Under the pieces are notes generated by a model. That model saw only the letters and a list, made by a program, of their open reading frames with translations, was not told where the DNA came from and made no database searches. The position numbers and the translations under genes were made by a program. Shown here in pieces: positions 156-42,987 of a stretch of DNA of 64,000 nt. Source of the DNA: Sphagnum compactum (lineage: Eukaryota). Where the stretch lies: assembly GCA_965153455.1 (NCBI GenBank), contig OZ234493.1:14498213-14562212 (forward strand), given 5' to 3'. Numbering within the stretch: position 1 is the first letter of the stretch; every line of letters starts with the position of its first letter.

Positions 156-383
156 CTCAGTTAAAAGGATTGTGATAAATTGATGAAGCCAGGGGGCTGA
201 TTCCTCAATGACCTTTTCATCATGTTTGTAGCCCCACAATGTCCCATTGGAAGGCCAACTGTATACAATTACAAGGCCTTTGAACTTCAGAGAATGTTTG
301 AGTTGTGCTGCTTGCTTGATGGCATCTTTATGGTTTACATTGTACCCATGAATGTACAACAATACTTCTCGAGCAGATTCCTC
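156..383 (-). CDS. DUF900-like hydrolase paralogue A, exon 2 (gene continues off the left edge)
   Basis: Acceptor TGAATGCAG|GAG and donor GAG|GTATGA, both phase 0. Encodes EESAREVLLYIHGYNV...AAQL...VIVYSWPSNG...Y..D and is collinear with exon 2 of paralogue B. Confidence 0.9.
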
Positions 384-900
384 CTGCATTCAAAGATCAA
401 CCTGTACATTAATTAATTAAAAAAAGAAAGTGTTGAACTCTTCCTTCCCCAATAAATATGGTTGACTTCAGTTTAAAACTATTTAAACACAAGTTCAAGC
501 TTGAGCATGACATGTCTACATAGTCTTATGGTTTTCTTCAAGTTTCTATAGAGAATAATTTATCAAATAGTGACAGTGATTTGTGAAACTGTCAACCATT
601 CAAGTGAAACTTAGTAGTAACTAGTGTGGCCTGTGTAATTGGCCCAAGTGTTAACTAGTTACCCAACTAAAATTGAATTTGAATTTTGAATTTTTATTAA
701 ATTTCCAATGACAAAGGTTACTAAAAAATCAACATCTCTTGCACCTCAGGTTTTGAAAATTATGAAATCAACATCAATACAAAATCCCACTCATTGAGGG
801 CTTTCCAATAGTAGCAAAAGCACTCCCCAAGTTCCCTAACATGCTTAGTTTTAATCTTATTGAATTTTCAATGAGAAACCCTTGCACCTTAGGTCTAAAC

Positions 901-1902
901 CAATCTTGGCCAGTTACCCGGGTGGACTTGGTTATCCAAGCTCGGTTTTGGTTTGATTTTAGAATCAAAATTGAGTTTTTTTTTAGAACCAGATGGAATT
1001 GAAACCTGATAAGGAGGGACTAGTTATGGAACTAGATTGGAATCGTACCTTGGTATTGGAATTGGACTCTGGGTTTCGGTCCAAACTCATTTGAGAATCA
1101 GAATCAGATCAAATTTTTTAAAAAAGTTCAATTTCAATTGTAGGGTTTAAAGAGTTTTTTGCTTTTTTTTTTGGGAGGAAGCTTACTTTTCTGTGACTGT
1201 CTTTTGTAATTTTTTTATTTTCGAAAATTATCATGTTAAAAGAAAGGTTGTGAGCTCCCAAATTGAGGTGCTTCAAATTTTGTTCAAAAATTTCACACTC
1301 AAGAAACAAGACAGCATTGGAGCTTGACTTCAAACTTTTTGGGGTTTGAAATAAGAGTTTTTTGGGGGCTGATCTAAGGTTTTTGGAGGGATTTGAAATA
1401 GAGTTTTTTTGAGATTTAAAATAAGGGAGAATTAAGGGTCCTCAAGGGTGGCAAGAGGTCAACCAAGATGGGTAGTTACAATTTTGAAAACCCTAAACAT
1501 GGAACCATATCTTTTGAAGACATTTACTGTAAATTAGGGTTTTGAAATATGTTATTTGTATTAATTGATTAAAAAAAATTGTATTCTAATTATTTTCCCT
1601 TAGAATAAAAGTTCAAGTTGTTTATTTTTCATATGTTGTTCATTTTCATATTTTGAATGTTGGAACCAAAATTGAAGGTTACCCAAAATTGAGGTTATTT
1701 GGTTAACAATAAAAATCAGTCTAACTTGAAAAAACAAACCAACCAAAACCGAAATGGCTCCCCTAATTAGAAGACCAAAACCAAAACTGAGTTTCACATT
1801 TGAAATTAAAAAAAACCTGAAACCAAACTAGACAATCCCTTCAAAAATGTTAAGAACAAGAACCCAAGGGGTCCCTCAGGACAGAGGAACTGGCCAACAC
1901 TG
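901..1902. mobile_element. hAT-type non-autonomous element (MITE) in intron 1 of paralogue A
   Basis: Imperfect TIRs CAATCTTGGCCAGTTAC / GGAACTGGCCAACACTG and a perfect 8-bp TSD GTCTAAAC at 893-900 and 1903-1910. An 8-bp TSD is characteristic of hAT elements. Confidence 0.85.
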
Positions 1903-2057
1903 GTCTAAACATCACAAAACCACCTCAGTGCATACCTTTTCTAAGGGCTTTACCAGGAGCACTGTGGGGGCACAGTGATTTGGGAGCTCTCAACATGACA
2001 AACAAACAAAGCATTTGAACAAACAAACGACCCTTTTTAATGGATAGATGCACATGC

Positions 2058-3398
2058 CTGAGCAAGAAGTTCGTGGTTGATCTTTTCCACAAACCCTCCG
2101 TTGTCATGTTGCAACCTGGTGTCAATTGACAAGATCTCCACATGCTGGAGTGGGGACTTTTCTCTGCGAATTGGTGCTCCCTCGTCAGGTATGCCCACTG
2201 TCGTGATACCGTAATGCAACTCTTTGCCCTTTCTCCAGCCGCTCATCGCACTATGTTGCCCGATGTACTCTCCATCTTCTGTGACATGCCTATCTGTTGC
2301 GTAGAAGACGTCCACCTCCGTATGACCTTCCGGAACCGTGAATATTTCCGTCTTGAAGTCACGAATGTTCCGAACCACTTTCGCTAAATACTTAGAGTCG
2401 AAATCTTCTATCAAGCTCTTGCACGCCTTCAAGAGTTGCAGACTATCCTCTGGTAAAGGATCACAATTTAACGCAAAGAGAACCTTCTCCTTATCATTAT
2501 CAAGAAAATATTTCCATGATTGATGCCTTTTGGGCAGGTAGTCTCTCAACGACTTAGCGAGTTGGGATTGCGACAGCAAGTAGGGAACTAAAAATCTATC
2601 AACCACCTCCGACACAAACATCACCTCCCATGCCGACGCCGCATCGAGTATTAACGCAAAAAATCCTGAAATCTCGCGAGACATTCTATACTGCTCAGAA
2701 GTCTCGTAGGTGGATGTCAATATCGGCAGTTTGTCGCACAACGCTTGGAGAAGGTAGAAACGGGGAAGTAAGTGGCGAGCTAAACCATCGTCCTTGCATT
2801 TGCCGAGAGACCAGGCATCTGCAACAGCACACTTCACATAGCGCTGCCCTGTATCATGAGCCGCCATTGCAAGATCTTGGACCTCCGGGACCATTATCAA
2901 GGCGCCCCGCAAGTAGTTCAAATCCGCACAAAACTCCCGTTTCACGTGCTCGCGCACAAAAAACGTTACTAAGCGCGAAAGATCGTTTTCGTTGGCCCGC
3001 AGGTTGGTTTCAAGAAAACGTTTCCATGATCGTAGTGGTATCGACAGACACTTCTGTAATGGAGGTGGTAGGTCGTCAAAATTCTCTTGCAAGTAAGGGA
3101 CCAAATCATATTGAAACCTCATCACAAAGTCCAACCCGGCGCCCAACTGTACATCCTGAGCAGACACGAAGGGAAGGTGCTGGAGCCGGGTCACACATTG
3201 ACGACGAACCGTCGAATTTGGCAACATATCGTGTATCAGTTGCAAAAGGAGCAATGAACCAAACAGGCCATATAATCCTTCATCTCTCCGTCGTTGGTTG
3301 CCTCCTCCGTCACTCTCGTCGTTGGTTGCCTCCTCCGTCTTGCCTTCATCTTCAGTACTCGTGCCACCGTACCTTGCCTTAGTGTGTATGGCACCCAT
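2058..3398 (-). CDS. DUF900-like alpha/beta hydrolase paralogue A, exon 1 (MGAIHT start, two tandem helical modules, start of hydrolase domain)
   Basis: First true ATG at 3398 (the ORF-track start at 3425 is TTG). Open for 447 codons. Contains VDVFYATDR and LHYGITTVGIP, typical of the DUF900/COG4782 N-terminal part. Ends at CAG|GCATGT, a phase-0 GC-type donor at the same position as the GT donor in paralogue B. Confidence 0.85.
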
Positions 3399-5249
3399 GT
3401 CGATCGTGTCAGGGAAGAACGCCAAGCTTGAAATTGCAAGGTTCCAGCGTATGTAAGCGCAGCTACTTTCAACGTGAGTCTTTCACTTGGTTTCCCCCAT
3501 CACAAAGTAGAATTGCGGATAGCGTCCTGTGCCTAGATTGCGACTGAAGTGAACAGAATTTTGCAGTTAGTGTTTACCGGCGATCTGCTTGATCTTCGGA
3601 TTTCGGCCAGATGAAGCGCCTTTTCTATCTTTGCCTTCTGGTATCCGACGTGACCGCCTCAGAAGTTCCACAGTCCAATCGTCAGTGGCCAGGGTAAACT
3701 AGTACCATTTCACTAGAAAACATTTACCAGTAAAGTTTTAGTAAAATTTGGGGTTTTCACCAGTGTTGGCCGGATATACATGTGAGTGCCCCTTTTCAAC
3801 ATGCATAGTGCCCTGGTTATGAACAATGCATATCCGGATTTTCCCCAGATCTCCCATATTTTGAGGTATAAGGGGCACATGTAGGTCTAGATGATATCCT
3901 TAAATTTATATTTACTTGCACATATATGTTTGTTCATTATGCATATCCAGTTTATCATTATTTTATGAGATCTGGATATGTATAATTATGTTATATATAT
4001 TTTTTATATCTTGTGTTTAAGGGTTTGTATATGCATATGCTTGTTTAAGGTTTGTTTAGGGTTTCCAAGGTTTCTTCTTTCTTTTTTCTTTTATTATCTT
4101 ATTCCTTTTTTTTATCATATCAATGCTTTGTTGTTTAGAGGATTTTGACACGCTCAAGCACTCAAACATTGAAAGTTTTTGTCACATCACAGTCGTGGCA
4201 CTGAAGAGGATTTCATGAATGCATTCAAGCACTCAAATGCTGAAGCACTCAAATGCACAAAAGGTTTTTCATGTAAAAGGTATGCTTGCATGATTTTATT
4301 CAACCTAATGAGCTTGATGCTCTAACTTCTAACCTACAACAAACTTTTCATCAGGACAATATGTTCGAGCTCGATTGAGCTTTATACAACTCATTAGAGT
4401 GAGCTTTCCACAACTCATCCAAGTTAGCTTTTCCATAGCTTGTTGGAATGAGCTTTTTCACAACTTTCAGAATGAGTTTTTTACAACTTGTAGCTTGCAA
4501 TTTGGTTATAACTTGTGCGTTGGTTGTGATTGTAGTAGCTTGGTTGTAATAATTTGGTCACAACTTCGACTTACTTATTAGGGGTGATTGCACATTACGG
4601 TGGCCCAATAATTCTATCACATTGGCAATTTTCCCTACATTTCCTACACACTTTGAATTTTTGAAATATATTTTTCTTTGAAATATCAAAAAAGGGTCTC
4701 ACTTATGTAAAACTAACACAATTAGCTTTCCAATAATTCAAAAAACCCATCAAGATCATGGACATTCAATAAGCAATGGACTTTTGAATTTTGACGACAA
4801 TTTTTGTCACACCTACAAAACACATGTGTATGAACTTTTACCTTATAATGTATTGGTCCCATGTATTTAAAACTTTGGGATCTAGATTAATTTTTGTTTA
4901 AGAAACTAAAGATGTATTGAATATGGAATATGATTTAAATTTATTATGTTATGGACTTTTCAAAATCCCAAAAACTACAATTATTTAAAAAGTCCTTTTA
5001 ATCATACATCGTAAATTATCTTTAAGGAATTTTTTTAAAAATCCTTATAACATCCTTAAATGAAATTGGAATTGGAAAAAGATGTTAATTTCAAAACATC
5101 TAGATATTCACATTTTCAGCCAATTTCCAAATACATTGCAATATGGACTTTGAAGGTAATGCCCTATTGCCGTAATTGAGACACCCTAGTGTGCTTTCAC
5201 CTTTAGGGTTTAAAGATTTTGTGTAGGTCTGAGCTCTCTTGCAAGATGA

Positions 5250-5570
5250 AGCTTGGTTGTAACTCCGTTGTAATAGTTTGGTTGTAGCTTGCAGCTTGGT
5301 TTTAGTAGTTTGGTTGTAACTTGCAACTTGGTTGCAACTTTTAGTTTAGTTGTAGGTTGCATTAATTAAGGTTTATACATTATGTTGTAGATTAGAACTT
5401 TATAGTGAGTTGAAGCTTGGTTACAAATTGTAGCTTGGTTGGAGTTTGGTTGCAATAGTTTGGTTGTAGCTTATAGTTTACTTGTAACATTTGGTTGTAG
5501 TTTACACCTTGGAATAGTTTGGTTGTAACTTGTAGCTTGCAGTAGTTTGGTTGTAGCTTGTAGCTTATAA
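5250..5570. repeat. Degenerate short tandem repeat (AGTTTGGTTGTAGCTTG-like units)
   Basis: The GTTTGGTTGTA(G/A)CTTG motif recurs many times; a similar patch lies at ~4490-4560. Confidence 0.7.
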
Positions 5571-6183
5571 CATCGCCCATTGTTATTTATACTACATAGA
5601 TGTTCCAAATCCTACTTTTTGTGATTTGAAAATGTTGGCTTTCTTGAATAATAAAGCCATGGAGAGTGTTCAAAAGGAACACATGACTGCATTCCATAAG
5701 AGGCTACATGTTTATGACCCCACACTTGGCACTTGATTCTTTCAACAAGTATAGGTTCATTATAACATGAATCTTGATCTTGAAATGATGACAAAAAAAC
5801 TAAGCTCCTTGTGTTTTCACAAGTGAATAATGAACAAAAGGTATTTTGGCTAAAGCATTGGAACTAGTCCCCAATTCTAAGGGAAGTTCAAAAGTTCCCT
5901 AAGGTTGGTAAATGCCATTTTTGAAAAATGGTTCCACAAGGCAACTTTTTGGTTTCAAATGCCATGTTGATTCTTTTTCAATGGTACAATGAAAATTTTT
6001 CTATGTTATTTTCAATGGCCCTTCATGTTCATGGCTTTTCTTTTGTGTTTTCATGGTAGTTGGAAGTGGAGGCCAAGAAGTTTTATAATAACATTGTGAC
6101 GGACCTTGGTGTTTTTATCCTTGAAAATGTCAAGGTTCAAAGTCTTGAGGATTTCATAAGTCACTGGAAGCTTGAATTGTAGG

Positions 6184-7101
6184 TGACGCACCCCCAAACT
6201 CCTAGATAGACTCAATTGCAAATCCAAAGGTGAAAACAATGTAAGGAAAAGGAGTTGGGGTACGCTCCTTAGCTCGCGACACTTCGAGGGTAGAGGAGCG
6301 TGCTGGAGCTCCAAGAGGGGGACTAGGACGAATGACAAGCGGGTCAATTATTCACACAAACCAAACAAACTAAACAAACCAAACAACAAGTTGGTTAGTG
6401 CATAATTGGAGCACTTTTGATGCACGGACGAGCCACAAGCATACATAGACCCACAAAACTCACCACAGCTCGGATCTGGGGGAAGCCATTACCTTCCCTC
6501 TTATAGTATTCTCTGTGCTTGACCATGGGGCTTGCACCCAAATGTCATTTTGTCCCGGGACTCCCAAGTTGGGAGTCCTAAAATTGGGATTCTTGCAACT
6601 TTGGAGGCCCATAATTCTTTTTACAGACCTCTGATTGAGGTGAAGTCCAAAGCAAAGTTGTAGCCCTCGTCAAGAACTTTCTAACGGTATGTGGCATGCA
6701 ACCTGCACAAAAGTAAATCAGGGCGATTCCCGACTTTTAGTGGTCAGGAATCAAATTGACAACTTGAATCCGGACCTTTTTTTTGGCCATAGCTTATGTT
6801 TCAAGTACCCAAATGGGTCATGCGAGCCCATTTGTAGACATCTACGTCTCAAGAGATTTCCAAGGTATAAATAACTTTTCAATCCAATGAGTTTGGCCCT
6901 TGAAATCACTCTCTGAAAATTTGAGAGTCCATCGGGACTTCAACTCCCAAAAGGGGAGCCCAAGTTGGGAGTGTGTGGGTTCATTCCTTCACACTCTCCT
7001 ACATTTCTGGTAGCATGAAATGTGACTCCTGGGCTTCATTATCAACCCTCACCTTTACAAGCCTTTGCCTTGGTCGTGAGCCTAAGGCTAGGGTTGCAAT
7101 A
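6184..7101 (-). mobile_element. Solo-LTR-like dispersed repeat, copy 1
   Basis: About 0.9 kb, starts TGACGCACCCCC and ends GCTAGGGTTGCAATA. Homologous to 7941-8711, 33037-33910 and 51717-52633. TG...CA-type termini in the family consensus; no long ORF. Confidence 0.7.
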
Positions 7102-7940
7102 GTGAGAAACTCCATTTTTTCGTGAATTCGAGCCCAAAGGTGGAATCCTCAAAAACGAAACTTGGCAACAATAGACTAATGGTGAAAAAACTTTGAAGTG
7201 GATAATCTACAGGTAACAAACAAATCTTTTTTGTGACCACCACATTTGCTTTTGTCTTCCTAATTAATTCCATACTTGGTTGCAACATCAACATTCCCCA
7301 CATTAAATTCAACTTCCTTGTAACAAGTATTTCTCCCATGTTCTTTTGGCAAAGGAAGCCATTTGCAACCTCCCTGCCTTTCTCAAGATGTGGTGCAATC
7401 CTAAAGTTGAAAGCACCATGTATAGGAAGGATCTCTAAAAAAAATGGTCAACTACCCATTTTACATTTTGCGGGTGGTACTTAGATTGCCTAGTTGATAG
7501 TACTTGAGAGTCAAAATGTGGGTTAAAGGAGAAGTTTGAGGATGACCACCTCAATAAGCCCATTTTAACTAATTCTAGTTTCAAGGGTGGCAAAAGAAAC
7601 CATGATGCCAAAAAGTCCATGAAAACTAAAAACCAATCGGCCAGATTTTCAGGTGAGAAATCGAGGAGGATCTTGAGCAAGAGGAGTTTGTTTTAAACCA
7701 AGAAACACCATAATCTCAAACTGTACATCGGAGGTGGCGACTTTTCAATATAGACACAAATCCTAGTTTGGATCTTCTTCCAAATCCCATCCTAGATCCC
7801 ATCAAATTTCCAACAAATTCCCTTATTTAGTTAAAAGTTTTAGCTTTTAATATTTTTTGGCCAACCATGGTGATTGCCAATGTGGCATCTAGTTCATGGT
7901 CCTCTCAATATGAAGAATTGAATGAAATGTTCACAATGGT

Positions 7941-8711
7941 TGTCACAACCTTAGCCTTGGGCTTGTGAAGGCGTGCCAAGAATCAAGCTTGAAAGTCACA
8001 TTTCATGTTCCCAGGAGTGTGGGAAAGTGTGAGGGAATGAACCTCCACACTCTTAAGTGAGCTCCCACTTTGGAAGTTGGAGTCCCAATGGACTTTCAAA
8101 TTCTTAGAGAGCAATTGCAAGGGTCAAAACCCATTGAAGGGTTACTACCAAAAGAAGGGTCGGGAGTCAAATCACCAATTTGACTCCCGACCATTAAAAG
8201 TCGTGAATCACCTCGATTTCCTTATGTGCAAGTGGCATGTCACATACCGTTGGAAAGCTTTTGACAAGGGTTAAAACTTTGCCTTAAACTTCATCTCAAT
8301 TGGAGGTTTGCACACAAAGTTATGGGCCCCAAAGTCACGGGACCCCCGGAACAAAATGACATTTGGGTGCTGGCCTCGTGGCCAGGCACAAAAAATACGA
8401 TAAGGGGGAAGGTAGTGGTAATCCCCAAGTCTGGGCCGTGATGAGTCTTGTGAGTCTGTGTTTGCCCGTGGCTTGTCCGTGCACCAAAAATGTTCCAACT
8501 ACGCACTAACCAACTTGTTGTTTGGTTTCTGTAGGTCCGTGTGAGTAATTGACTTGCTTGTCAATCTTCCTAATCCCCGTCTCGGAGCTCTAGCACGCCA
8601 CTCTACCCCGGAAGTGCTATGAGCCAAGGAGCGCGCCCAACTCCTTCTCCTTCCGTTGTTGTCACCTTTGGATTCACAGTTGAGTCCATCAAGGAGCTTG
8701 GGGGTGCGTCA
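7941..8711 (+). mobile_element. Solo-LTR-like dispersed repeat, copy 2 (opposite orientation)
   Basis: Starts TGTCACAACC and ends GGGGTGCGTCA. Flanks ATGGT / AAGGT match at 4 of 5 positions, as expected for a decayed 5-bp TSD. Confidence 0.75.
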
Positions 8712-10326
8712 AAGGTATTCATTTAGGCAATTCATTATGTTCATTTCACAAAATTGGTATTATTCTACATGATATTAATCAATTTCCTTCCACTTTGTAA
8801 GATTTTGGATGTGGAAAGTCTATTATCCTCATTGTTGAAATTCCATCAAACTTGCTAGTTCTTTTTATCTCCAAACCTCCCACTATTGTCATGTTCTGGA
8901 ATCGTCACACAGATAACTACATGTATGGAGTTTTTTAAACAAATACATCGTTGACAATGGTGCAATTTTAATTTTCCATGATGATTTTGCATCTTGAAGG
9001 AAATCAAGTCTTTCTTGGAGACCACTGGATATGAGATCCATTCAAAATGGGTAGTTATCAATACTCTACCACAAATGAATAATGAATTCAAAGGGAAATT
9101 GGTAATTCCCATCTTTATTATCTCTACATTACATTTCATTTTAAACAATCATCTTTTATTAAATTTTTTCATTCCTCACCTTGCAGACTTGAATAAATTG
9201 GGTGACTATTCTTGTTCATTTGATGAATGGTTTCTAGTTTCGAAAAAATCACCCAAAGATGGTAAAACTTGGTGTTTCCTTGGGTGAAGATGATATCCAT
9301 ATTGACATTGAAACAATGGAGAAGTTCAACATAAATATCCCATTCAAAGGATGTTAAGAGATGCATGTGTCCACATTAAGGTTAGCTTGTGCAACCCTCA
9401 TGGTTCACTTATTGTCAACATGAATTCATCCACTAGTATGTCTTCATGAGTTATGTTTGCAAGTTGAAATCACAATTTTTGCTCCTTCAAGATTCAAATC
9501 TTGGTTTCCTTAATTATTTTCCAAAGAATTGCATTTGAACTTGTTAGTCTATTGGCCATGATTTTTTTATGTTGGAACCAAATGATGATGTTTATGAAAA
9601 GGTTGTCAAACCTCCTTAGGTTGAGACTAGCTTGACTGCTTGGGTGCCCCCAAATTCACTAGCCAAGAAGAGAGTGCAAATCAATCTCAATTATGAATAA
9701 GTTAGCATTCATCATCTTTGAATGCATCTTCTTTAATTGTTCTTCTTCCAATTAAAGGCTAATGTTCTATGTGTCTATAGAAATATCCAGCCTGATCGTT
9801 CTCAGTTGACACGTGGAATGCCACATCATCATGTTGTGAAACTAGAAGTTGTTATTTTAATCACAAAAGTCATGGTATGTTTGATTAACTAATTTTCATT
9901 TATTAAAAGCATATTATTATAATTTCAAGGATAATAATATTATCTACCCAAAAAAATGTAGTAGTTGTCATAGTAATTATAGTCGTAAAACCATGACATC
10001 ACATGAAATCTCAATGGCCTTTGCAACTACATAGTGATTTTTGTGACTAAGTAGTTACAATTGTAGTAAAAAAGGACAGTAGTCATTTTTTTTACCAATA
10101 AAAAAACCCATAATGTGTTGTTGTGATTCTTGATCGGATGAAAGCATGGTAAAGTAGTCAATTTTTTATCCTTGTCACCAAAAACAAAAGTAGCCATAAA
10201 CAAGTTTTAATGTATTGAAAGTAGAATGTTTTTTTATTTAATGATTAACATGAGGATACTCTTTAATTTTATCACAACAATATTAATTAATCACATATCT
10301 AATATACATTGAAGTACATTGAAGGC

Positions 10327-10785
10327 CTGGCCCACCTAAGAAAAAAGCCTGAAAAATGTCAGAATAGGTACATCCACACTAGTTATGGTGAACCTTCTTC
10401 ACTTATCCTGACTGACTAGATCCTTACAATTATGTGCCAAGCCCTGGGGTAGGGTCCATGTCCAAACGCCTCATATGGCGTAAAGATGGCCAGAGCGAAC
10501 TAGCATCGACCAGTAGGATGGATGGATGGTACCTGGATAGGAAACACTTTTCTGTTGGGGTCAAATTCCCTAGCTGTTGCTGCAGCAACTCCCCTAGGAT
10601 CTATCATTGTTGGAGTGGGTACCACAGTAGATGAAAAAGGTAAAGAGGCAGATGAAAAACACAGCCCATACTATGGACAGAACGGCCAACTGGTGCAGTC
10701 ATGGGGGATGCTTCACTCTGGCCTTGGCCATTAACAAGTTGAAACTGACAACACGGAAAGTGGAACCATCAGATGGCCGCCTGGC
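10327..10785 (+). repeat. ~457-bp unit, left copy (contains a mini-TIR cassette)
   Basis: Nearly identical to the two tandem copies at 27326-28143. Confidence 0.85.
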
Positions 10786-13269: not shown

Positions 13270-14673
13270 ATGGGTCGTGCTTCAAAATCTCAATATATTG
13301 AGATTCAAAACCCAAAGAAGTCACCCTTTAACAACATGGACTTGGTGTGGAAAAAAGATGTTTGACACGGAGGGGCACATATAATCGAGGTTGAATGTGC
13401 ATACATCCCACATGCACGAGTCTCAGAATTTATAAATGGTGAACGAAGCCATGAAGACTCTCCAATGGAGTTGAACATTTATAAGTGGGTACCTTCACAA
13501 GAAAATGTAAAAATGCCAAGAATCCAAAACCACCTTGGCCATATTTGGTATGATGTTCTATTATTCATTTTTGTTATATGGAACTTGTTTTTTAACCTCA
13601 TATTGTACCAAATTTTAAGTCCTAAATTGATTTCACATTTGTAGGTATGCATGTGGGTATGGGCCAGAAGATAATCGTGGAGACCTAAATCACCATCGAT
13701 CCGTTAAACGAGGTTGTTTAGCTCAATTTTTGATTAGGCGATTGTACACACGACCTGAGGTGGCAGAGCTAATCTTCTACCATAGACCTCATACACGGAT
13801 CAATGGTGAGCCTGCATGTGGCAAACATGACCTTGATTCCATTGCACGACCATCTTTTTTTGCCCCAAGAATGTCACAAGCCCTCAAAGACCACATTTAG
13901 ACCCAATTGGGTTTAGGTTACACCGTCAAGTAAATATATGATAAGCATAAAGCAATATGGTGGGCTAGAATCAATGCAGGAGAAGTGATGACAAGGGATG
14001 ATTTCATTAGACAACAAGACATTGCTTACTTGGATCGCAAACACAAAAAAGGGAGTTGGCATTTACACCAAAATCCAACCATTTCCCTTCGCACATGGGC
14101 ATTTAGTCATCTAGATGATGTGTTTTATTTTCAAGATGCAAGTGAGGATAATGAGATTCATGTCCCATTCACAATAGGCATACAAACCCCATCTCAATTG
14201 CAAGCCATGGTTTCATTAGGTGATAATGGGGCAATTTCAATAGATGCCACCTTCGGCACTAATGATGTGAAATTTCATTTGTTCACATTGATGGTGTTTG
14301 ATGCACATCGCACTGGAGTGCCGGTTGCATGGATCATTACAAGTTGCCAAACATGTGATGATTTGGTGGAATGGTTAACTCCTTTGAAAACAAAGTTTTT
14401 AAGGAAGAACCCTAAATGGAAACCTTCATGTTTCATTGTTGATGATGCTTCATAAAAATTACAAGCATTGCGGTGAGTTTTATTTTCATTCTACCTTTTT
14501 TTGAGCTTTTATGTACATGTAGCCATTTCAAAATTTCATCCCACATTCTCCATTTTAAATAATGTTATTAGTTGAAATGATAATAAATTGGTATTTTATG
14601 CATGGTTAGGATTGTGTGGGGCGACGATCAAGTGCCCATTTACCTTTGCACGTGGCACGTCTTAAAGGCTTGA
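13270..14673 (+). pseudogene. MULE (SWIM-associated) transposase pseudogene, 3 exons, truncated
   Basis: MGRASK...AYIPHARVSEFINGE; YACGYGPED...KRGCLAQFLIRRL; ISIDATFGTNDVKFHLFTLMVFD; FIVDDA; LCTWHVLKA (D-D-CxxH of MULE). GT-AG introns at ~13548-13645 and ~14473-14609; several in-frame stops. Confidence 0.85.
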
Positions 14674-33036: not shown

Positions 33037-33910
33037 TGTCGCAACCCTAACCTTGGGCTCGCAACCAAGGCAAGGGTTTGCAAAGGTGCGGGCCAAGAAT
33101 GAGCTCGGGAATCACATTTCATGCTCCCGAGAGTGCAAGAGAGTGCGAGGGATTGAACCCTCACACTCCCAAGTGACTTCCCATTTTGGGAGTTGGAGTT
33201 CCAATGGACTCTCAAATTTTCAGAGGGCAATTGTAGGGGTCAAAACTCATTGGATTGAAAAGTTCCTTATATCATTGAAAATCTCTTGGAACTTAGATGT
33301 CTAAAATGGGCTCACTGACCCATTTGGGTACCTAAAACACAAGTTATGGCCAAAAGAAGGGTCGGGAGTCAAATCGCCAATTTGACTCCCGACCACTAAA
33401 AGTCAGGAATCTCCCTGATTCTCTTGCATGTAGATGGTGTGCCACATACTGTTGAAAAGTTCTCGACGAAGGGCTACAACTTTGCTTCAGACCTCTTCTC
33501 AATTGGAGGTTTGCACACAAAGTTATGGGACTCCAAAGTCGCAAAAATCCCAATTTTGGGAATTTTGGGACTCCCACTTGGGAGTTCCAAGACAAAATAA
33601 CATTTGGGTGCTGGTCCAGTGGCTAGGCACATAATATACTATAAAGGGGAAGGTGATGGCTTACCCTAAATCTGGGCCATGGTAAGTCTTGTGAGTCTAT
33701 GTTTGCCCGTGGTTTGTCCTTGCACCAAAGGTCCTTCAACTCTACATTAACCAACTTGTGTGTGGTTTGTGCACGTCCGTGTTAATAATTGAATTGCTTG
33801 TCATTCTTCTTAGTCCCATCTCGGAGCTCCAGCACGCCCTTGTACCCTCGAAATGCTGCGAGCCAAGGAGCACCGCAACTCCTTCTCCTTCTGCTGTCTT
33901 CACCTTTGGA
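33037..33910 (+). mobile_element. Solo-LTR-like dispersed repeat, copy 3 (3' end truncated)
   Basis: Starts TGTCGCAACCCTAACCTTGGGCTCG and is collinear with 7941-8711 until CACCTTTGGA. Confidence 0.75.
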
Positions 33911-34289
33911 AATGATGCTTACCATCAAGAGTGTTATAAAGAGCTTTTGAATCCCAAGTGTGAAGTCGGTCAACATGAGAACAATATATGTTGATTGTCA
34001 CTCTGATTGATTCCATCTAAATTACAAGCATCAGTTGAACAAATGGTAGCTATTTCAACAATCATTCATTCACACAAAACATGTAGGGCGTCATATAAAA
34101 ATTTGTTTTGTTGGGTCTAGATGCGACATCAGCATTTGAAAACAACATGGAAGGGATAGATAACATACCAGAGAAGAAAGCAAGTCAAAAGTATAGAGAT
34201 GTAATGGGTGAGACAAACAGCTAGCAAGTGAATGTGAAGTTAGAACTAGAAAATGGCAATGTTTAAGGGGAAGGAAGGGAGAAAGATGA

Positions 34290-34312
34290 ATATATATATA
34301 TATATATATATA
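34290..34312. repeat. (AT)n microsatellite
   Basis: Visible directly. Confidence 0.9.
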
Positions 34313-36789
34313 GGTTCAATAGTAGTGCTGGTGGTGGAAAGACAACCATCAACTTTGCCAGAATCATGAAAGAGAAGGAAGAAGACGTATGTTCCCAAGG
34401 TATTCATCTTGATTCTCCTTGAAGAAATAAGGGTTTGTAGTTTTATGGCGTTTAGAAGGATGGCCTTCTACAAGATATCTATGTGATTAGGAGAGCAAAG
34501 GTGAAAAGGATAGTTATAAATGGTTTCTTACCATATTCCAATTGTATGCCAATCTAACAATAGATGAAAATGTTAGAGTTGTGATGAAACCACGTAAAAC
34601 ACACAAGGACTAAAACACTTTCCTCAAAACTAGGACCAAAGCCCATTAAGAAACAGTTAGAAACAATTGTTAAAGATGGAGATCTTACCAACCAAGGGAA
34701 GGAGCCCATTGTAGAAGATGAGGAAGATCAAGCTATGGAGATTAACAAAAGTTCACTACCCCTAAAACTCTGGAGTAAGAAAAAGGGAGTTCCAAAAAAG
34801 TTTGTAGTAGAAAAGGTTTTAACAATTGTTTTTGGTAGAGCTAGCCCACATGATGAATTATTGCAAAAGCCACCTCCCACATTATCCTCATACAACTCCA
34901 AATCTTGGGCCAGCAAATGTTATGGTTAATAATCCATGTTTGTATATTGCATCTACATGTTAGATTGGAAGTAGCACCAGATGGTTGAGTAATTGGAGGA
35001 ACAACTAGATAATGCTTGGGAAATGACTTTCTCATGAGAACATGTTCTTTTTGAAATGACAAATGCTCTTTAGGAACTTGAAGGAAAATTTGTTTTAAGT
35101 CCCATAGCAGAGGTGAAGGTTATTTTGGCTTGAAAAAAAATAAAAGAGGGAAAAATGTAAAACTAATAACAAAGCAGGAAAAAAATTCCAAAGGAAAAAA
35201 TACAAAAGCAGAAGAAGTTTGTAGTTCAAATTCATATGTACAATTGATAGTTTAGTTAGAGGATCACATTTTGAAACATCAATTGTAGAGTCTAATGAAT
35301 TTGTTCTTTTTGTGAACAAGAATTTAAATTGGACACATAGTATACTGATTTTTGAAAACTTACAACTTGAACTTGCAATTGAAACTTGAATATGTATTTA
35401 CTATAACTTATTTTGAAGTTGGAACTTTGTCTGAATTTGTCATGTTTTGGTCATTGAATCGGAGCTTGGATTACACAACTTATTTTGAAAACTTGCAACT
35501 TGATTTGAATTTGATTTGAACTTTCTCTTGCATTTGCATAATGGGCATGCTTCTTGGCCAGGACTCATTGGCATCTATTGGGATTTGTTTATGTGACTTA
35601 AATCAAATACAAATCAAACCTTGTCATTGAGAGAAAAAATTCAAAGGATTCATATTTAAATATTAATATTTTAAAATATTGGAAATTTAGAACTTATTTC
35701 GAAGTTGGAAACTTGTTTGAATTTGTAACTTTTTGTGGGAACTTTGATTGAATTTGTAATTTGTTGATTCAAAAACTTGTTTTGAAAAACTTATAATTTT
35801 GATTTGAAAGTCAAACCTTGTCATTGACAATGAAAATTCAAAGTATTAATATCTTTAAATAACAAAATATCATAAATTTTTTAAAAAGTTGAAAAACAAA
35901 TAATTTACAGAATTAAACTTCTAAAGATAATATTTGAAGTGTTTAGGTAACATTAAAAATAATAATTGAAATGAAATTGGAGAAATATTTTTCATATACA
36001 ATAAATTAATTAATTATTTAAGTATAATAAACGAAAATAAAATAAAATATATTTTGAAATAAAAGTTTAAGATTGATTTGACAAAAATAAAATGAAAATA
36101 AAATTATCTTAAAATTCAAGTAAAGATTTTTAAATTTTCAAATAGATTTTTGAATTTGAGATTCATAAATTTCAAACTGATAACCAATATTTTTAATATT
36201 ATTGCATTCAATTATTGGTTAGAATATGTGCAATGTTATGAATTACAAGAAGTGATGTGACAAGATGATATAAATTTTATTAACGTATTAAATAGGTTTT
36301 GAAATGCATCACAAACAATTAAAAACATACATTGTATGAATAATAATTGTTTGGAAACCCCACCAATGGACGACATTTTACCATATTATTTCACACTATG
36401 TTAAAACAACTATGCATAACAAAAATGTATTCCCAAACACATAAGTCAAACATTCACATTTTTAACATGTGATGTTCATGCTGAAACATGGCCATCTAAT
36501 TTTAAATCAGCAAATTTAACATCTCAAACATCTAGCTTACATTAAGAAATTTTAGTTTGAAAAACATTATTGGTGGAATTTTGTGCAAGGAATTACAGAA
36601 CATCAGATGGTCTTGTGAATGATGATGATGGAATTTTTGAAATATTTGCATAAAATATTTCAAAATCTTTAATCTGGATATATTTTCATAATCTTCAAAT
36701 TGGACATAATACATGAATTAAAAAATTACAAATCTATGAAAAATTCCCAAGGCTTGATAAACAATGGACATCAATCAAATGTAAAATTG

Positions 36790-38720
36790 TCGAAATACAA
36801 ATAAGGAGTAATCCTTCTCACACTATCACGAGAATGCAATTCAATTAGCTTCGGCATGCACTATACATCGTTCACAAGGGTTGATTTTTGATCATTTAAC
36901 ATTTGATTTGATTGCTGTGACAAAACATGGTTTAACATATATTGCATTATCAAGGGTTCATCCCAAAAAAAATTGTATTTACTTTTTCCATTATTAAATA
37001 ATTTTTTTGAAGTGGATCATTTTGTTCAAAAAGAAATGTTTCAATTATAAACAAATGCACAATATAAACTTGCTATTGTTTCTTTGAAGTCCTACCGTTC
37101 AAATTTTTTTATTATAGAATCTTTTAATACTCGTTCTTTAACATTACAATTTGAAGGTATTCTTGAGGATCCAAATCTATTAGCATCACATATTCTCTGT
37201 TTAAATGAAACAAGAATAAAAAATGTTCCTTTAAATTCAAAAATTTACAATGCTTGATCACAAAAATTCCATGTATTATCATGTTGTGATGAACATGACA
37301 CTATGGTACTTTATGATGACAATGTGTCATTGATAGAAAGCACAACAATCACAAATTATGGTCCTAAATTTATCATTGTGCATTTTAATGACAACACATG
37401 ATAAGCATTATACATAATTGCAATACATAAACCACCTAAAATGCAACTATCAATTTTAATTTGATCCTAGAAAACATTATACAAAAAATGCCTTCACATT
37501 GTCTGATTATAATAATTGGAGATTTCAATATAAAGTTTTTAACAAAAAAAAATCAATCATCAACATTACAAGCATTTATGAATAAATATAATTTTAAACT
37601 CACTTTTATTAAAAAACACCATTATTAATGATACACAAATAAATTACATGTGGACAAATGCACCAATACAACAATGTCATTTTGGAACAACAGAAGCATA
37701 TTGGATAGATCATAAACCCATTTATTTTGCTTTCAAATTACCCGATTATGTTCCCCAATTTGTGTTACCACACAATACCACAAAAGGAATGACTATTGTT
37801 ATATTTATGAAAAATATATATCATGAAAGCAACACTATATATAACAATTAAATAAAAGCTTCAGGCTTTTGTAAAATCGTTGTCAGTCCATTAATTTCAA
37901 AAAAAAAATTCATGATTGCAAATGCATATTGTTGCACACAACAATGACAACAAAATGTGTGTAACTATTTTTCCACTTATTGTAATTTTTTCACAATGTA
38001 TTTGTATACATACATAAATGCACATGTATAATATCTTATATATTGGCATGGCCAGTGTGTTTGTGACATCTTGGAATGTTATGTATGTTTGATGACATAC
38101 AAACAAATGTTTTTAGCATACATGCAAGACCTATGTGGGAAGCAAATACAGATGCATAGTATGTTCTAGATCCATATTTTGTTGTAGCTTCTTGCACTTT
38201 TTATTTAACAAAAGTAAACAAATCAATTACACAAGAAATGCAATCCATGTTAAGCAAATGTAGGCATGAACAATATGAAACATTCGAACGAATCAAAAAA
38301 TTAAAAAATACATTTTTAAATGCACAACAAATGTCTATTCAACAAGCAATGCACATATCATTATCAAATGAAAATCGTATATTTTAATTCAATTTTGAAA
38401 ATCATATTAAAAGACATGCTTAAAGATTATTTAACTATTTAATTGGAGATTTCAATATAGACATGTTAAAACAAACACCTCAATCAAAAACATTTCAAAA
38501 CCTTATGTACAAATACAAATTGAAACACATTTTTATTAAAAACACAACCATTACTAATACACAAATAAACCATATTTGGACTAATGCACCAACACAACAA
38601 TTTCATTTGGGAGTAGCACAAACATATTGCACAGACCATAAACCTATATATTTCACATTTAAATTACCATATTATGTTCCCCAATTTATTTTACCATACA
38701 TATATTACATATCAAACATA
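36790..38720 (+). mobile_element. Helitron/Helentron remnant: PIF1 helicase C-terminus + AP-endonuclease (EEP) domain + displaced Rep-region fragment
   Basis: QLASACTIHRSQGL..D...HGLTYIALSRV (PIF1 C-terminal motifs); SFNTRSL, ILCLNETRI, AIHKPP, IIGDFNI, WIDHKPIYF (EEP); WEANTDA.YVLDPY...YLTK...NTFLNAQQMSIQQA (Helentron Rep-adjacent). The EEP C-terminus is repeated at ~38440-38700. Heavily decayed. Confidence 0.8.
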
Positions 38721-40622
38721 TAACATGTATGTTTGTCAAACAAAATCCATCAATTGTCATTTAAATTGAAATTAAATTGTTACAAATTTATAGTTTCAAA
38801 ATAATAATTGAGTATTAAAATGTGAACCAAAAGAATTGTCAGTACGATATAATGGAACAAAAATAATAACAACAACAAATTCACTTTGAAATTACATACC
38901 TAGTTAATTATTCACATACTTATTTCAAAAAAAAAAAAGAATAAAATAAACAAACAACACAAATATACATACGTGCATATTTACCTATCTACATGTAAAT
39001 CTATTTATACAATTATACTATTAAATAGGCAGGGTCTGCATGTCACCAGGCCTTGTTTTCAGAAGGAGCCACATCGATTGGCCCATAGCCTATTTTTCAG
39101 AACATTGGGCACTCCCAATATAGAAGTCCTAGATTTGCGTCCCTCCCCAAAACTGCTTCCCATTGCACCCACAACCCCACCCCACCTTTACAATTTATAT
39201 ACATGGAAGTTGAACCATGGCCAAACCATATGGGATAAACTTGAGGTGCTGTTGGGAATGCCATAAGCGACACATTGGAACTTGGGGAACATATTGGGAA
39301 TCTTATGGGAACTCCTTGGGAACATACCCAAAGAAGTCCCCGGCCCCCTCCCCAAAAGAGAAAAAGTTAAACCCCCCAAGCCTTTTCATTAGCTGCATGA
39401 AAAATCTCTATTTCCTGAAGGGTTTGTCACCATTTTCAACCTGGGCTACTAGCCCCCATTATAGACTGGGGGCACTTATTTATTGGAGGTTTTGTCACAC
39501 CTCTTAGAGTACTCATGAGTCACAATCCACATATGAGAAAGTCAAATTGGGGTTGAACAATTGTTAGCAGAATCTTACCTTTCTTTTAACATCAGGTGGG
39601 CCAAGGTCTTTGTCAAATGGACTACTTGTTGCACACAACATTTCAACTGACCAAATTTTCAAGGTGTATTTAAGACCCACCTCTAATATCAATCTGTTTG
39701 GCTAAGCATGTTATCCAGTTATCAATTCAATTGTTTAGGATTAACTAAAACTCATCATGTTATGCATAAGAGTGGGGGGTTTACAAGACCCACTCTAACC
39801 ACCTAGCCTGTTGACAAGGTAGGTTTTGAAATCAACAAATACTTAAATTCAAGAGAGATGGATTTAAGGCATACAATCATAGCCACATATCCCATTTACA
39901 AGATTGGAATACAAGCCCAAAATGGAGAAGCACTGTCATCTGCAAACTTAGGGTTGAAGAGAGAATTAACTTATTGGGATGAATTATAAAGGAAAGGGAG
40001 GACACAAACAGGGTTTACATCCTTAACAAGGGGTGTGTCACACCGTGGCCTTGCCATTTACATCAAAAAGTATCTTAGGCAAAAGAAGAATTATGAAAAC
40101 TCAAATATTTCACCATGCAAAAATATAATCTTCAACAAATCCTCTGAAAGAAACCAAAATCCTTCAAGCTATTATAACTCTATAACTAATCTCAAGTTTC
40201 AACATAAGCCAAAATATTATCTTTCAAAAATCCTCATATAAAAATAGACCTATTATTACCTAGGGGCCAAAATCCCTTAAGCTACTATACTCTATAATGA
40301 ATCTAGGTAGGCGATGGCAACAAAGTCATATCAAGCCTAGTAGGGTTCTAGTTGGGTAGAAAATGCTACTAGATTGTAAGGGTCTCTGTCCTGTTCTGCA
40401 TTCATCTTAGATCCTTTTTGTATAGGGGAAGGCACTGCTGTACCTTCCCCTTTGTAACAAATGAGGAGATCTGACAGTTCACATCACCTTACACCCTAGC
40501 CCTAGGTTGCTTGCGCGCAAGATCCCCACTCCAGGAGGGAAAAAGAAATTGCACCTTGTAAAGCACCCTCAATTTCCACTAGGATACCTCTCCAAGGTAG
40601 TTAAGTTACTCATAACTATCCG

Positions 40623-41204
40623 TCACCCTGGTTGGATTCTTTGAATATCTCGGTTGAACTTACTCTCTTTCCACCATTCTGGGTCACATGCATGAAAAGT
40701 CTGTCCATGCCTATGAAGAAATGGTTGTATAACTGGACGGTCTTGTGCACGGTGGTAGTTTGTCAACAAATTCTGAATGTCGTCTAGCACTTCACGGGCT
40801 TCAGCATGATATGAGTGCTTCAGACGACTGTTGCATCCAACTCCAGATGCATCTATCACATCAACCCTAGGGCCCGGTTCGTAAAGTGAGTTGAAAAGGC
40901 TGACCGTGTTTCCCAATCGTAAGTCCCAATTGATGTATCCTGATACAAAGAGGGGCCAATCACAAGCTGATGAATAAACCGAGATTATAGGGCTATGGAC
41001 TGAGATATTTTCAGGAAACACGTCTTGAAGCATTCTTTGAAATTTGTGGGGTGCTTCATCAGCTGCTGCCAACATAACATTTTTCAACACTCCCTTTCGA
41101 TGAACAAGTTCGTCGTAGTCCTCCCACCCAGGCCTTCTCAATGCTTTAATTAGGGCACGATTCCCCATGCTATGTGCCAAGATATGAACTTCGGAAAAGA
41201 GATC
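40623..41204 (-). CDS. DUF900-like hydrolase paralogue B, exon 3 (catalytic core)
   Basis: Acceptor CTACAG|GAT, phase 0. DLFSEVHILAHSMGNRAL (nucleophile elbow), NVMLAAAD, VYSSACDWPL, RLG, VDVIDASGV, HSYHAE..VLDDI. TGA stop at 40623. Confidence 0.92.
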   Translation of the reverse strand, partial: DLFSEVHILAHSMGNRALIKALRRPGWEDYDELVHRKGVLKNVMLAAADEAPHKFQRMLQDVFPENISVHSPIISVYSSACDWPLFVSGYINWDLRLGNTVSLFNSLYEPGPRVDVIDASGVGCNSRLKHSYHAEAREVLDDIQNLLTNYHRAQDRPVIQPFLHRHGQTFHACDPEWWKESKFNRDIQRIQPG

Positions 41205-41403
41205 CTGTAGTAGTTTAACAACAAAGAGTCAAGAGAATTTATACACGGCTTGGATGAGGTTTACATGGACTGTCAGTCCCATGTTGATAGAGGTAAGTGA
41301 CTTTAGGATAAATGTCCTAAACCTGTTAAAAGCTAGATCGAACATTGGATTCTTATTCTGAAATAAATAAAGTAACTGAACGAGGCCAGGCCGAAGCTCA
41401 TAC

Positions 41404-41616
41404 CTCCCTTAAAATGGTTGTGATGAATTTACGAAGCAACGGGGCAGTCCTCTTAATCACCGTTCCATCTCGTTTATAGAACAAAGGTTTCCCCCTCGTA
41501 GGCCAACTGTACAGAATTACAAGGCCTTCGAATTCCAGATCATTTTTTAGTTGTGCTGCACGCTTGAGAGCACTCTTATAGGATACAGTGTACCCATGAA
41601 TGTACAACAACACTTT
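41404..41616 (-). CDS. DUF900-like hydrolase paralogue B, exon 2
   Basis: Acceptor GGATGCAG|AAA and donor GAG|GTATGA, 213 nt, phase 0/0. KVLLYIHGYTV...RAAQLKNDLEFEGLVILYSWPTRG..Y.RD. Confidence 0.92.
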
Positions 41617-42099
41617 CTGCATCCAAAGCTCAAGTTGTATATCAGTTTTTTTCAAAAAGGTCTTGAGTTGAAAAACTACTCTTGCTTCCCTCAAAAACAT
41701 GTTTAACTTGAAGAAAACTATCTAAAAACAAGTTCAATCTTGAACAAAACAGATAGAAACCTACTTAACCTTGTGGTTTTCTCCAAGTTAATATACAGTA
41801 TTGATCAAATATTGACTGTGCTTTGTCAACCATACATCATGGCTATTCATCAATAGATCTTGCTGGTCCTCATGCATTCAAAGGCAATGATGAAAAAATA
41901 AATTCAAAGTACACGTTCTCAGTTTGAAATGGAGCTGCAGCCGGCTACCCTTCCCTTACCCTAGCTGACCCCTGTTTGTTTGAGGAAAATTGTCGAGCAA
42001 GTTCGGGCTTCGAGCACTTATGAACAATGTACAAAGAAGGATTAAAGCTATTTCATTTTGAAGTTTTGGATGGAGAAATTATTGCTTGTGAACTCTTAC

Positions 42100-42987
42100 T
42101 TTCTGAGGCCCACCGGTAGAAGACGCAACATCGTTTGCCGAATTACATTCCGCTCTGATTTGCTCCAAAAATTCGTCCCATTCCGACCATAGGCCACTTT
42201 TTCCCTCTAGCATGAAATGCTCGGAGGGGTTACCTTGCTGGGACTTGTCGGGAGACTCCACTTTCCCTCTCTCATGCACGCCAGGTATGCTCACTTCCTG
42301 GTAACCGTAGTGCAAAATACGTCCCAGCACCGATTTGAAACTGCAGTCATATACATGTCTATTAGTTGCATAAAAGACCTTTATCTTCTTTGCCCTCGGC
42401 ACGGACTGTGATTCTCCTCTTTCATTCACATCCTCATCCACCCCTCCAATTGCTCTCATGAGCATTGTAGTCAGCGTTTTGAACGTCTTCAAAACCTCTA
42501 GTCCCGCACTGGGCTGCACATTTGAGACAATGTCTTCCTCCTCACCCTCCTCATGGTTAGTTTTCTTTTCCTGCAAAAACTGTTCCCAGTCTTGGTTTTT
42601 TTCTGGCAGGCATTGTCTCAGCTTTTCCATTAGATGATCTTCAGCCCGCAGGTAGCTAAGCAAATGAGTATCAAATGCATCTGAAACTATTTGAATTCTC
42701 TCAAAAATCGAGCGGTCTCCACGATCCAGATGGACTTCCAATTGGTGCTCCAATACCTGCAGTGTCATATAGCTCATCTCATCATCATATCTACGAATCA
42801 TGTCAGAAATCTGTGTCCACTGCGTATTGTCGGCATCAGCCGCGGATCCGATTTTCACTTTGTTCAAGGTATCAATGGCACGGACACGATAACAAAATGT
42901 TACGTATGTGAAGTGCTTCCAATCAACCCAATCATCCCCACCCCCCTCAGCGCCAGTTCTGCGGAAACTGGAGAGCGTTGCACCCAT
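42100..42987 (-). CDS. DUF900-like hydrolase paralogue B, exon 1 (MGATLS start, one helical module, start of hydrolase)
   Basis: ATG at 42987, 888 nt, donor AAA|GTAAGA. Contains IKVFYATNR and LHYGYQEVSIPGVHERGKVESP. The three exons splice in frame to about 560 aa. Confidence 0.9.

Follow-up and report, generated by a model that had tools for sequence, protein, structure and literature searches.

This study concerns two genes in a 64,000-nucleotide stretch of the Sphagnum compactum genome (GenBank assembly GCA_965153455.1, contig OZ234493.1, positions 14,498,213 to 14,562,212 of the forward strand), which is referred to as the window. The two genes, designated A and B, appear to represent a land-plant protein family, found in mosses, a liverwort and a lycophyte, in which a membrane anchor and a plant-specific all-helical module would precede a C-terminal hydrolase domain of the DUF900 family. 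Their coding sequences appear to be under strong diversifying selection with the catalytic core held fixed. At a rough probability of 55%, the family consists of membrane-tethered lipid hydrolases engaged in a biotic arms race. The structural and evolutionary parts of this composite reading are much firmer than its functional part; what we infer is the lipid substrate, the defence role, the function of the helical module and the part played by A-type proteins, be it as decoy, regulator or adaptor.

The family is of interest for several reasons. The large hydrolase family DUF900 is nearly without assigned functions, and its plant branch, distinguished by a helical module, may represent a lineage-typical trait of non-seed plants. 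A full-text literature search, whose reach did not extend to supplements, found no paper on land-plant DUF900 members. Nor did the literature searched describe the architecture of the plant proteins or where it occurs, the nucleophile loss in one lineage, or the inverted conservation of exons and introns, although supplements may list such genes in screens for horizontal transfer or selection.

Gene models

Both DUF900 paralogues of the window carry introns and lie on the minus strand, and a tblastn search of the window with six family proteins as queries returned A and B and no further copy. Gene B (42987..40623, minus strand) has three exons and encodes 560 amino acids. Its model is 100% identical to an entry named “unnamed protein product [Sphagnum compactum]” (P0030) and is thus independently annotated. 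Exon 1 (42100..42987, minus strand, 296 codons) starts with MGATLSS and covers the helical module, at about residues 19-181, and the first DUF900 strands (KIKVFYATNR). Intron 1 (41617..42099, minus strand, 483 nt, GT..AG) separates it from exon 2 (41404..41616, minus strand, 71 codons), which carries LLYIHGYT and SWPT. Intron 2 (41205..41403, minus strand, 199 nt, GT..AG) is followed by exon 3 with the stop codon (40623..41204, minus strand), in which 193 codons (41204..40626) containing AHSMG, LAAADE, SACD and HSYH precede the stop at 40625..40623.

Gene A extends past the left edge of the window. Its exon 1 (2058..3398, minus strand, 447 codons) starts with MGAIHTK, contains two helical sub-modules at about residues 33-178 and 211-346, and ends in the beginning of the DUF900 domain (VDVFYATDR). 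Intron 1 (384..2057, minus strand, 1674 nt) is of the GC-AG type, with the donor CAG/GCATGT. This donor is considered real because it is kept in all three related genomic loci (L076-L078) and because an A-type contig (L021) reads like a spliced transcript, running uninterrupted over the joint of exon 1 and exon 2 (INDELLAQ/KASAGEVLLYIHGYN). Exon 2 (156..383, minus strand, 76 codons) carries LLYIHGYN and SWPS, and a GT donor at 155 follows it directly; the exon carrying the nucleophile therefore falls outside the window.

The three-exon structure is common to the A, B, C and E types (subfamily labels from this analysis), so the introns predate the expansion of the family in Sphagnum. In addition to contig L021, intron-free relatives include full-length open reading frames (ORFs) of 557-735 amino acids on contigs of 2.3-2.8 kb (P0010, P0038, P0039, P0305 and P0309). 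Because the genomic genes carry introns, we infer that these contigs are transcripts.

One difference from the relatives was seen at the intron 1 acceptor of gene B. Exon 2 begins three residues later than in the relatives, with GGPQK/KVLLY in gene B against GGPQKNAREVLLY in P0031 and P0032, and at 41604-41625 the relatives read ..GCACGAG.. where the window reads ..GCAGAA... A small indel seems to have shifted the acceptor. The longer form of exon 2 is carried by metatranscriptome contigs.

The original prediction, made from the letters of the window, had described two intron-containing paralogues with an MG start, one or more helical modules and a DUF900 hydrolase, and the spliced models and Pfam matches agree with this description. 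Its outer limits also correspond to real boundaries, as 156 is the last base of gene A exon 2 and 42987 is the start of the gene B ATG.

Hydrolase domain and nucleophile position

The Pfam DUF900 family (PF05990, curated cut-off 20.5 bits) matched gene A exon 2 with 65.1 bits (E-value (E) 8.6e-18), gene B exon 2 with 50.5 bits (2.5e-13) and gene B exon 3 with 47.5 bits (2e-12). All of the motifs that had been quoted as a DUF900 signature are present, these matches are above the cut-off, and P0030 has a precomputed PF05990 annotation. The AlphaFold (AF2) model of gene B, based on a 70-row alignment, reached a mean predicted local distance difference test score (pLDDT) of 83 and a predicted template modelling score (pTM) of 0.70. 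In the model, residues 1-18 are disordered, residues at about 19-181 form the helical module, and from residue 200 a beta hairpin leads into the hydrolase domain, in which strands and helices alternate from residue 296 on in an alpha/beta hydrolase fold. The best PDB matches of the model are lipases and esterases, with Bacillus subtilis lipase A at the top (Foldseek E 8.7e-5).

A complete set of Ser, Asp and His had been proposed for gene B, and all three residues are in place. Ser379 (41171..41169, minus strand) lies in the Ala-His-Ser-Met-Gly elbow after a strand, Asp449 (40961..40959, in SACD) follows the next-but-one strand, and His497 (40817..40815, in HSYH) lies in a late loop. This order is canonical, and the columns are at least 90% conserved in the 70-row alignment, with the exception of Ser, owing to the A-type rows. 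Asp449 is the probable acid, judging by the canonical order and its position after strand 7. As predicted from sequence and model, gene B most likely encodes an active serine esterase, lipase or phospholipase that would act at the membrane surface.

The A lineage differs at the nucleophile position. All seven full-length A-type and A2 proteins have Asp (four) or Asn (three) there, and Ser is found in all 19 of the other plant rows that cover the site (row P0046 is gapped). The genomic loci give the same picture, with AHDMG or AHNMG in 4 of 4 A-type loci and AHSMG in 10 of 10 loci of the B, C and E types. The A-type proteins mostly keep the His and both conserved Asp residues. The alternation of Asp and Asn among close A-type relatives suggests that catalysis is apparently not the feature being preserved, and gene A would most likely be a non-catalytic derivative, i.e. 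a regulator, decoy or binding protein. The lineage without the Ser nucleophile goes beyond the original prediction, as does diversifying selection on the hydrolase domain itself, described below.

Helical module and N-terminal anchor

The N-terminal modules of A and B matched no Pfam family above cut-off, and the helical module had no match outside plants. A model of the gene A N-terminal module (residues 1-349; pLDDT 80, pTM 0.80) is all-helical and consists of two sub-modules joined by a disordered linker (residues 174-201). The second sub-module matches the gene B module (E 2e-9). The match of the first is weaker, at E 0.013 in the window copy (LVPYLQ..SWK.FL motif), with second high-scoring segment pairs of E 2e-7 to 3e-8 in relatives. 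Together the two matches indicate that A-type proteins carry the helical module twice.

The module has the signature VSxxxDxxLLxYLQ...LPxxxQxWxxF, in which D, P, Q and W are invariant in all nine aligned plant sequences (alignment A1). An upstream LLPRFxLL motif is present in many members of the plant family. Searches by structure returned no relative: the ESM Atlas gave no usable match for the gene A N-terminal module, Foldseek with the N-terminal module model gave no match at E of at most 0.001, and the fold search with the model returned generic three-helix bundles only. A fold assignment from these bundles was dropped, since the best of them (Z 6.8) lies below the background for helical proteins.

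Two kinds of N-terminus occur in the family. In Selaginella, in Calypogeia and Ceratodon and in the C type of Sphagnum the protein opens with a hydrophobic stretch, whose 19-residue Kyte-Doolittle maximum lies at residues 3-10 and amounts to 1.48-2.04. No such stretch is present in the A and B types (maximum 0.33-1.37), which start with MGxxx[ST]. With G-{EDRKHPFYW}-x2-[STAGCN]-{P}, which we take to be the N-myristoylation pattern, 23 of 24 true MG N-termini fit, including MGAIHTK of gene A and MGATLSS of gene B. Genes A and B are thus candidates for N-terminal myristoylation, and in the Sphagnum lineage the MG anchor seems to have replaced the N-terminal hydrophobic helix of other plants. The family probably works at the membrane, because homologous proteins have two alternative anchors. 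Seven A-type relatives (P0003, P0004, P0006, P0009, P0012, P0014 and P0016) start with MD instead of MG; these would have lost the myristoylation Gly and kept the remaining N-terminus.

Divergence of exons and introns

Gene B was compared with five metagenome-derived genomic loci of the same gene structure (L001-L005). Identity to gene B is 78.0-89.7% in the exons and 92.8-96.5% in the introns (92.8-94.2% in intron 1 and 94.4-96.5% in intron 2), so that the exons are less conserved than the introns; the flanks range from 76.4 to 96.6% upstream and from 83.2 to 94.7% downstream. Divergence (K) in the introns is 0.036-0.078, against a nonsynonymous divergence (dN) of 0.25-0.34 in the B module and 0.21-0.24 in the B hydrolase. 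Synonymous divergence (dS), at 0.06-0.17, is somewhat above the intron value of 0.04-0.08.

The ratio of dN to dS (omega) was calculated in two ways. Pairwise Nei-Gojobori omega exceeded 1 in 13 of 15 pairs for the B module, 15 of 15 for the B hydrolase, 6 of 6 for the A module and 4 of 6 for the A hydrolase. One-ratio maximum likelihood models (GY+F3X4, gap-free columns only, with p from a likelihood ratio test against omega = 1) gave 2.65 for the B module (p 5e-7; 171 codons, six sequences), 2.63 for the B hydrolase (p 1e-10; 329 codons, six sequences), 3.79 for the A module (p 4e-11; 281 codons, four sequences) and 1.66 for the A hydrolase (p 0.019; 322 codons, three sequences). Thus dN/dS was significantly above 1 throughout (omega 1.66-3.79, p 0.019 to 4e-11), and coding sequence evolved faster than neutral sequence. 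The original description of the module as uncharacterised and fast-evolving is upheld by the missing Pfam match and by the omega values of 2.65 (B) and 3.79 (A).

Other features of the alignments are in line with selection on the proteins. In all four sets the third codon position differs less than the first two, and none of the 10 coding sets contains a stop codon despite dN values of up to 0.34. The six B copies vary in 270 of 500 aligned columns, and VFYAT, LLYIHGY, VHILAHSMGNRALI, LAAADE, SVYSSACDWPLFVSGYINW, VDVIDASGV and HSYHAEA are invariant. In a C-type pair omega was 0.60 for the module and 3.0 for exon 3, and intron K was 0.03-0.04; the procedure therefore does not always yield values above 1. 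Each of eight sampled paralogues and outgroups shares only 0-5 of the 28 residues unique to the window copy, so conversion from the sampled copies does not explain them. The coding sequence thus appears to be under strong diversifying selection around a fixed catalytic core. A gene-wide omega of about 2.6 together with exons less conserved than introns is rare and usually marks host-microbe or other conflict interfaces.

Taxonomic distribution and phylogeny

A search with gene A exon 1 returned 29 proteins, of which the named ones are all from Sphagnum and the best is 75% identical. A search with gene B exon 3 returned 11 among the longer proteins, including one of 618 amino acids from Selaginella moellendorffii (P0040). 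HMMER searching of 1.84 billion representatives gave 7332 matches (clusters) at E of at most 1e-3 and 43 at E of at most 1e-30. Among the 150 best of the 7332, the helical module is present only in Sphagnum-type sequences, P0040, P0047 from the liverwort Calypogeia fissa and P0048 from the moss Ceratodon purpureus. The other top matches contain the hydrolase only, and those with names are bacterial. Ceratodon purpureus has two loci, and P0048, P0187 and P0188 share the helical-module motifs, as do P0047 and a second Calypogeia copy (P0189) found by profile search. That profile search, made with alignment A1, was dominated by bacterial DUF900 and missed some members of its own query; its results are not taken to mean that other plants lack the family. 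No seed-plant member occurs among the matches whose names were looked up, a search that was not exhaustive. The named prokaryotic matches belong to Acidobacteriota, Alphaproteobacteria, Planctomycetes, Streptomyces and Pseudomonas.

A maximum likelihood tree of the hydrolase domain was computed from 89 rows, 20 of them from plants and 69 from other sources, with a quick search and support from the Shimodaira-Hasegawa-like approximate likelihood ratio test (SH-aLRT); its root was not inferred. The 20 plant rows form one clade (SH-aLRT 99) on a long branch, separate from the 69 others and not nested in any bacterial group. Within it the Sphagnum rows, 15 in number, group together (94) and comprise the subfamilies A, A2, B, C, D and E, and the Selaginella row and the Calypogeia and Ceratodon rows fall outside it. 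Because the same architecture is found in a lycophyte, another moss and a liverwort and the plant rows form a single clade, the fusion of the helical module with DUF900 is judged from these sequences to predate Sphagnum and to be old in land plants. Likewise, the expansion of the family into several subfamilies is, by the same tree, specific to Sphagnum.

The family had been described as clustered and divergent, and both terms apply. Judged from matching lengths of chromosome-scale contigs, A- and B-type genes appear to lie together in S. jensenii, S. troendelagicum and S. balticum, and in S. magellanicum an A and an A2 gene are two locus tags apart, with linkage read from the tags.

Comparison with other systems

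Prokaryotic DUF900 (COG4782) proteins are about 25-37% identical to the plant proteins across the domain and share with them the motifs VFYATxR, HGY, SWPS, AHSMGNRAL and HSY as well as the acid Asp behind strand 7. In prokaryotes the domain is often C-terminal behind a variable TPR, HEAT, Ser/Thr kinase or ImpA_N region, which resembles the plant layout. The plant proteins differ in having the helical module, introns, a eukaryotic-type anchor and a clade of their own. N-terminal regions observed in non-plant relatives include type VI secretion ImpA_N, long HEAT arrays, TPR and Ser/Thr kinase (P0067, P0073, P0086, P0091, P0094 and P0136). When bacterial relatives were scanned with PADLOC, only the kinase domain of P0094 (PD-T4-6 models) and the HEAT region of P0073 matched, and never the DUF900 part. 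This hints at DUF900 as a reusable output domain in prokaryotic conflict and signalling proteins. The prokaryotic family is itself of unknown function according to a review (PMC11878206).

Two other DUF900 systems can be compared by published description. Cinquedea of Haloferax larsenii is presented in a preprint as a secreted bactericidal phospholipase A, of whose archaeal homologues 69% are reported to carry DUF900 (bioRxiv 10.64898/2026.06.10.730825). It is an alpha/beta hydrolase, like the proteins studied here, and its membrane phospholipase A activity in conflict between organisms is the only biochemical activity found tied to DUF900. It differs in being secreted, archaeal and without the helical module, and its relation to the window proteins is drawn from that description, not from sequence. 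The second system is the group-4 ROCO proteins of brown algae and a diatom, which have a C-terminal DUF900 and are discussed by their authors as candidate immune receptors (PMC11378527). As described there, they share with the plant proteins a eukaryotic setting and a C-terminal DUF900 behind a putative sensor or regulatory region; by the same description, an LRR-ROC-COR region stands in place of the plant helical module.

The closest structural counterpart of the gene B model is Bacillus subtilis lipase A (family I.4, PDB 1i6w and mutants), with Foldseek E of 8.7e-5 to 2.3e-4 and template modelling (TM) scores to the target of 0.65-0.67. It has the same Ala-His-Ser-Met-Gly elbow, over which a sequence profile matched at E 6.4e-5. 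The lipase, a minimal enzyme of 180 amino acids, lacks additional domains. It is only 16-18% identical, with the sequence match confined to about 40 residues around the elbow, and the gene B model has further strands and, at residues 200-234, a long beta hairpin on its N-terminal side.

The original prediction had likened the genes to the EDS1 family. In EDS1, PAD4 and SAG101, lipase-like immune regulators of seed plants, an EP domain stands C-terminal to a lipase-like domain of class 3, and some members lack catalytic competence. The likeness would be conceptual: an alpha/beta-hydrolase-like domain combined with a helical domain, catalytically deficient members and a possible pairing of enzyme and pseudoenzyme. 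The hydrolase family and the domain order differ, the helical module being N-terminal here, and Pfam scans of all five exon translations matched DUF900 only, with no Lipase_3 or EP domain at E of at most 0.1. The comparison therefore holds as an analogy but not as homology of domains. A further likeness, in evolutionary mode only, is to snake-venom toxin families, for which accelerated evolution of coding regions is reported (PMC2474615, PMC4280545). These are also duplicated genes whose coding regions evolve faster than non-coding ones, in unrelated proteins and organisms.

Proposed function and alternative explanations

In the proposed mechanism, most lineages would be anchored by a hydrophobic N-terminal helix, and the A and B subfamilies of Sphagnum by an MGxxx[ST] start of the N-myristoylation type. 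The members that retain Ser, gene B among them, would be active serine hydrolases held at the membrane and acting on an ester or lipid substrate, and the A-type proteins without Ser would be non-catalytic regulators, decoys or binding proteins. DUF900 may be a general output behind a variable N-terminal module, a design which the plant helical module would fit. The surfaces would diversify under conflict, e.g. in defence against microbes, with the catalytic core fixed. Conflict is preferred to housekeeping because several features occur together: a core that stays fixed, surfaces that are hypervariable, an expansion specific to the lineage, tandem linkage and a sister lineage without Ser.

A more specific form of this proposal is an immune or conflict module of non-seed plants, in which active membrane-tethered phospholipase-like executors are paired with linked A-type decoys or sensors lacking Ser and pathogens drive the surfaces. 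In this full form the proposal is tentative and, in our estimate, unlikely. If true, it would be a bryophyte-era convergent counterpart of lipase-like immune regulators, with a fixed core and hypervariable surface echoing venom phospholipases. To our knowledge, very little is known of bryophyte immunity. Sphagnum, a keystone of carbon storage in peatlands, lives closely associated with microbes, and a family of fast-evolving membrane lipases with paralogues lacking Ser would thus offer testable candidates for how Sphagnum handles microbial partners and pathogens.

Several points weigh against a catalytic, conflict-driven family. The activity of gene B is a prediction from sequence and model. 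The loss of Ser in gene A is extrapolated from relatives, the closest of them 75% identical. Some alpha/beta hydrolases use a catalytic Asp at the nucleophile position, and the A-type proteins therefore need not be dead enzymes. DUF900 is absent from PADLOC, neither P0030 nor P0040 matched any PADLOC family, and nothing ties DUF900 directly to immunity; an NCBIfam scan of the plant proteins also returned nothing. The omega values come from 3-6 sequences per set, from metagenome loci, from gap-free columns and from one-ratio models, and exon-limited gene conversion could have contributed to the divergence. Lastly, expression of gene B, raised in the original prediction as a matter for RNA sequencing, found no backing in one polyA run of the same species label, of which about 12% was read and which placed no reads on gene B at 40307-43400, although spliced relatives do exist.

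The absence of reads in that run is one argument for the rival explanation that A and B are decaying or drifting neutrally and that the high dN/dS reflects relaxed constraint. The A-type copies without the nucleophile Ser, the pairwise omega near 1 (0.62-1.29) in the A-type hydrolase, and the MD start in seven A-type relatives point the same way. Yet relaxed constraint would bring omega to 1, whereas it is significantly greater than 1 in all four partitions, and neutral drift would equalise exons and introns, whereas the exons outpace the introns. In addition, no stop codons have accumulated in the 10 coding sets, the catalytic motifs are invariant in the six B copies, and intron-free contigs of relatives, presumably transcripts, exist. 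Decay is therefore a quite improbable explanation. Still less probable, in our judgement, is a housekeeping membrane lipase or esterase for lipid turnover that would seem to evolve fast only because paralogues were compared or because gene conversion was limited to the exons. The strictly conserved core and the age of the family in land plants fit such an enzyme; the compared loci come from metagenome assemblies, and the slight excess of dS over intron K is a possible hint of imported tracts. An intron identity of about 93-96%, however, speaks for orthology or allelism of the loci and against old paralogy, and the 28 window-unique residues find few counterparts (0-5) in any of the eight paralogues and outgroups. 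Conversion from paralogues under purifying selection would moreover give an omega below 1, and 270 variable columns of 500 would be unexpected among six near-orthologues of a housekeeping enzyme.

The remaining rival concerns origin rather than function. The original prediction was of a horizontally acquired esterase that gained its introns, anchor and extra domain in a bryophyte. A recent transfer of this kind, into Sphagnum or bryophytes, would account for the overwhelmingly prokaryotic distribution of DUF900 among the named matches (7332 representative clusters at E of at most 1e-3) and for the lack of a seed-plant member among the names looked up, and the family is described as bacterial in the review cited above (PMC11878206). 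Against such a transfer stand the same fusion of module and DUF900 in Selaginella, Ceratodon and Calypogeia and the plant clade (20 rows, SH-aLRT 99) on its long branch outside all bacterial groups, and DUF900 also occurs in other eukaryotes, such as the brown-alga and diatom ROCO proteins of PMC11378527. A vertical phylogeny with the same architecture across green plants, which would speak for inheritance, was found in part, in the form of lycophyte, moss and liverwort members in a single plant clade. From the shared fusion and the single clade it follows that any transfer would be an ancient one, dating to the divergence of bryophytes from vascular plants or earlier. A recent transfer is thus doubtful, and an ancient bacterial transfer into an early land-plant ancestor is possible.

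Other sequence in the window

Just downstream of gene B, at 40200-40306, many RNA reads and metatranscriptome contigs align with partial fit. All 202 polyA reads placed in the run described above fall in this interval, and 201 of them fit partly only, with loose ends on both sides. The interval resembles part of an expressed, dispersed repeat more than it does the 3' untranslated region of gene B. A metatranscriptome joint of exons 1 and 2 at 42100/41615 (runs X15, X17 and X18) was considered as evidence of gene B expression and rejected, as it has 10 extra letters and only 20 letters on its shorter side; it is probably a relative's.

The window is low in G+C (0.25-0.46), and its tRNA and Rfam scans were empty. 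The genes had been said to lie in a region rich in transposable elements; the one element recognised is a Mutator-like element (MULE) transposase fragment on the plus strand at 13934-14452 (Pfam E 2.4e-8), which also carries a ZSWIM1-3 RNaseH-like domain and is the sole Pfam match among the 54 ORFs of at least 90 amino acids outside genes A and B, so that this claim is weakly borne out. At 55000-57800, overlapping ORFs of 90-173 amino acids occur on both strands in sequence of higher G+C (0.40-0.43) with no Pfam match, and this cluster may be either a degraded element or a gene of short exons that has escaped annotation.

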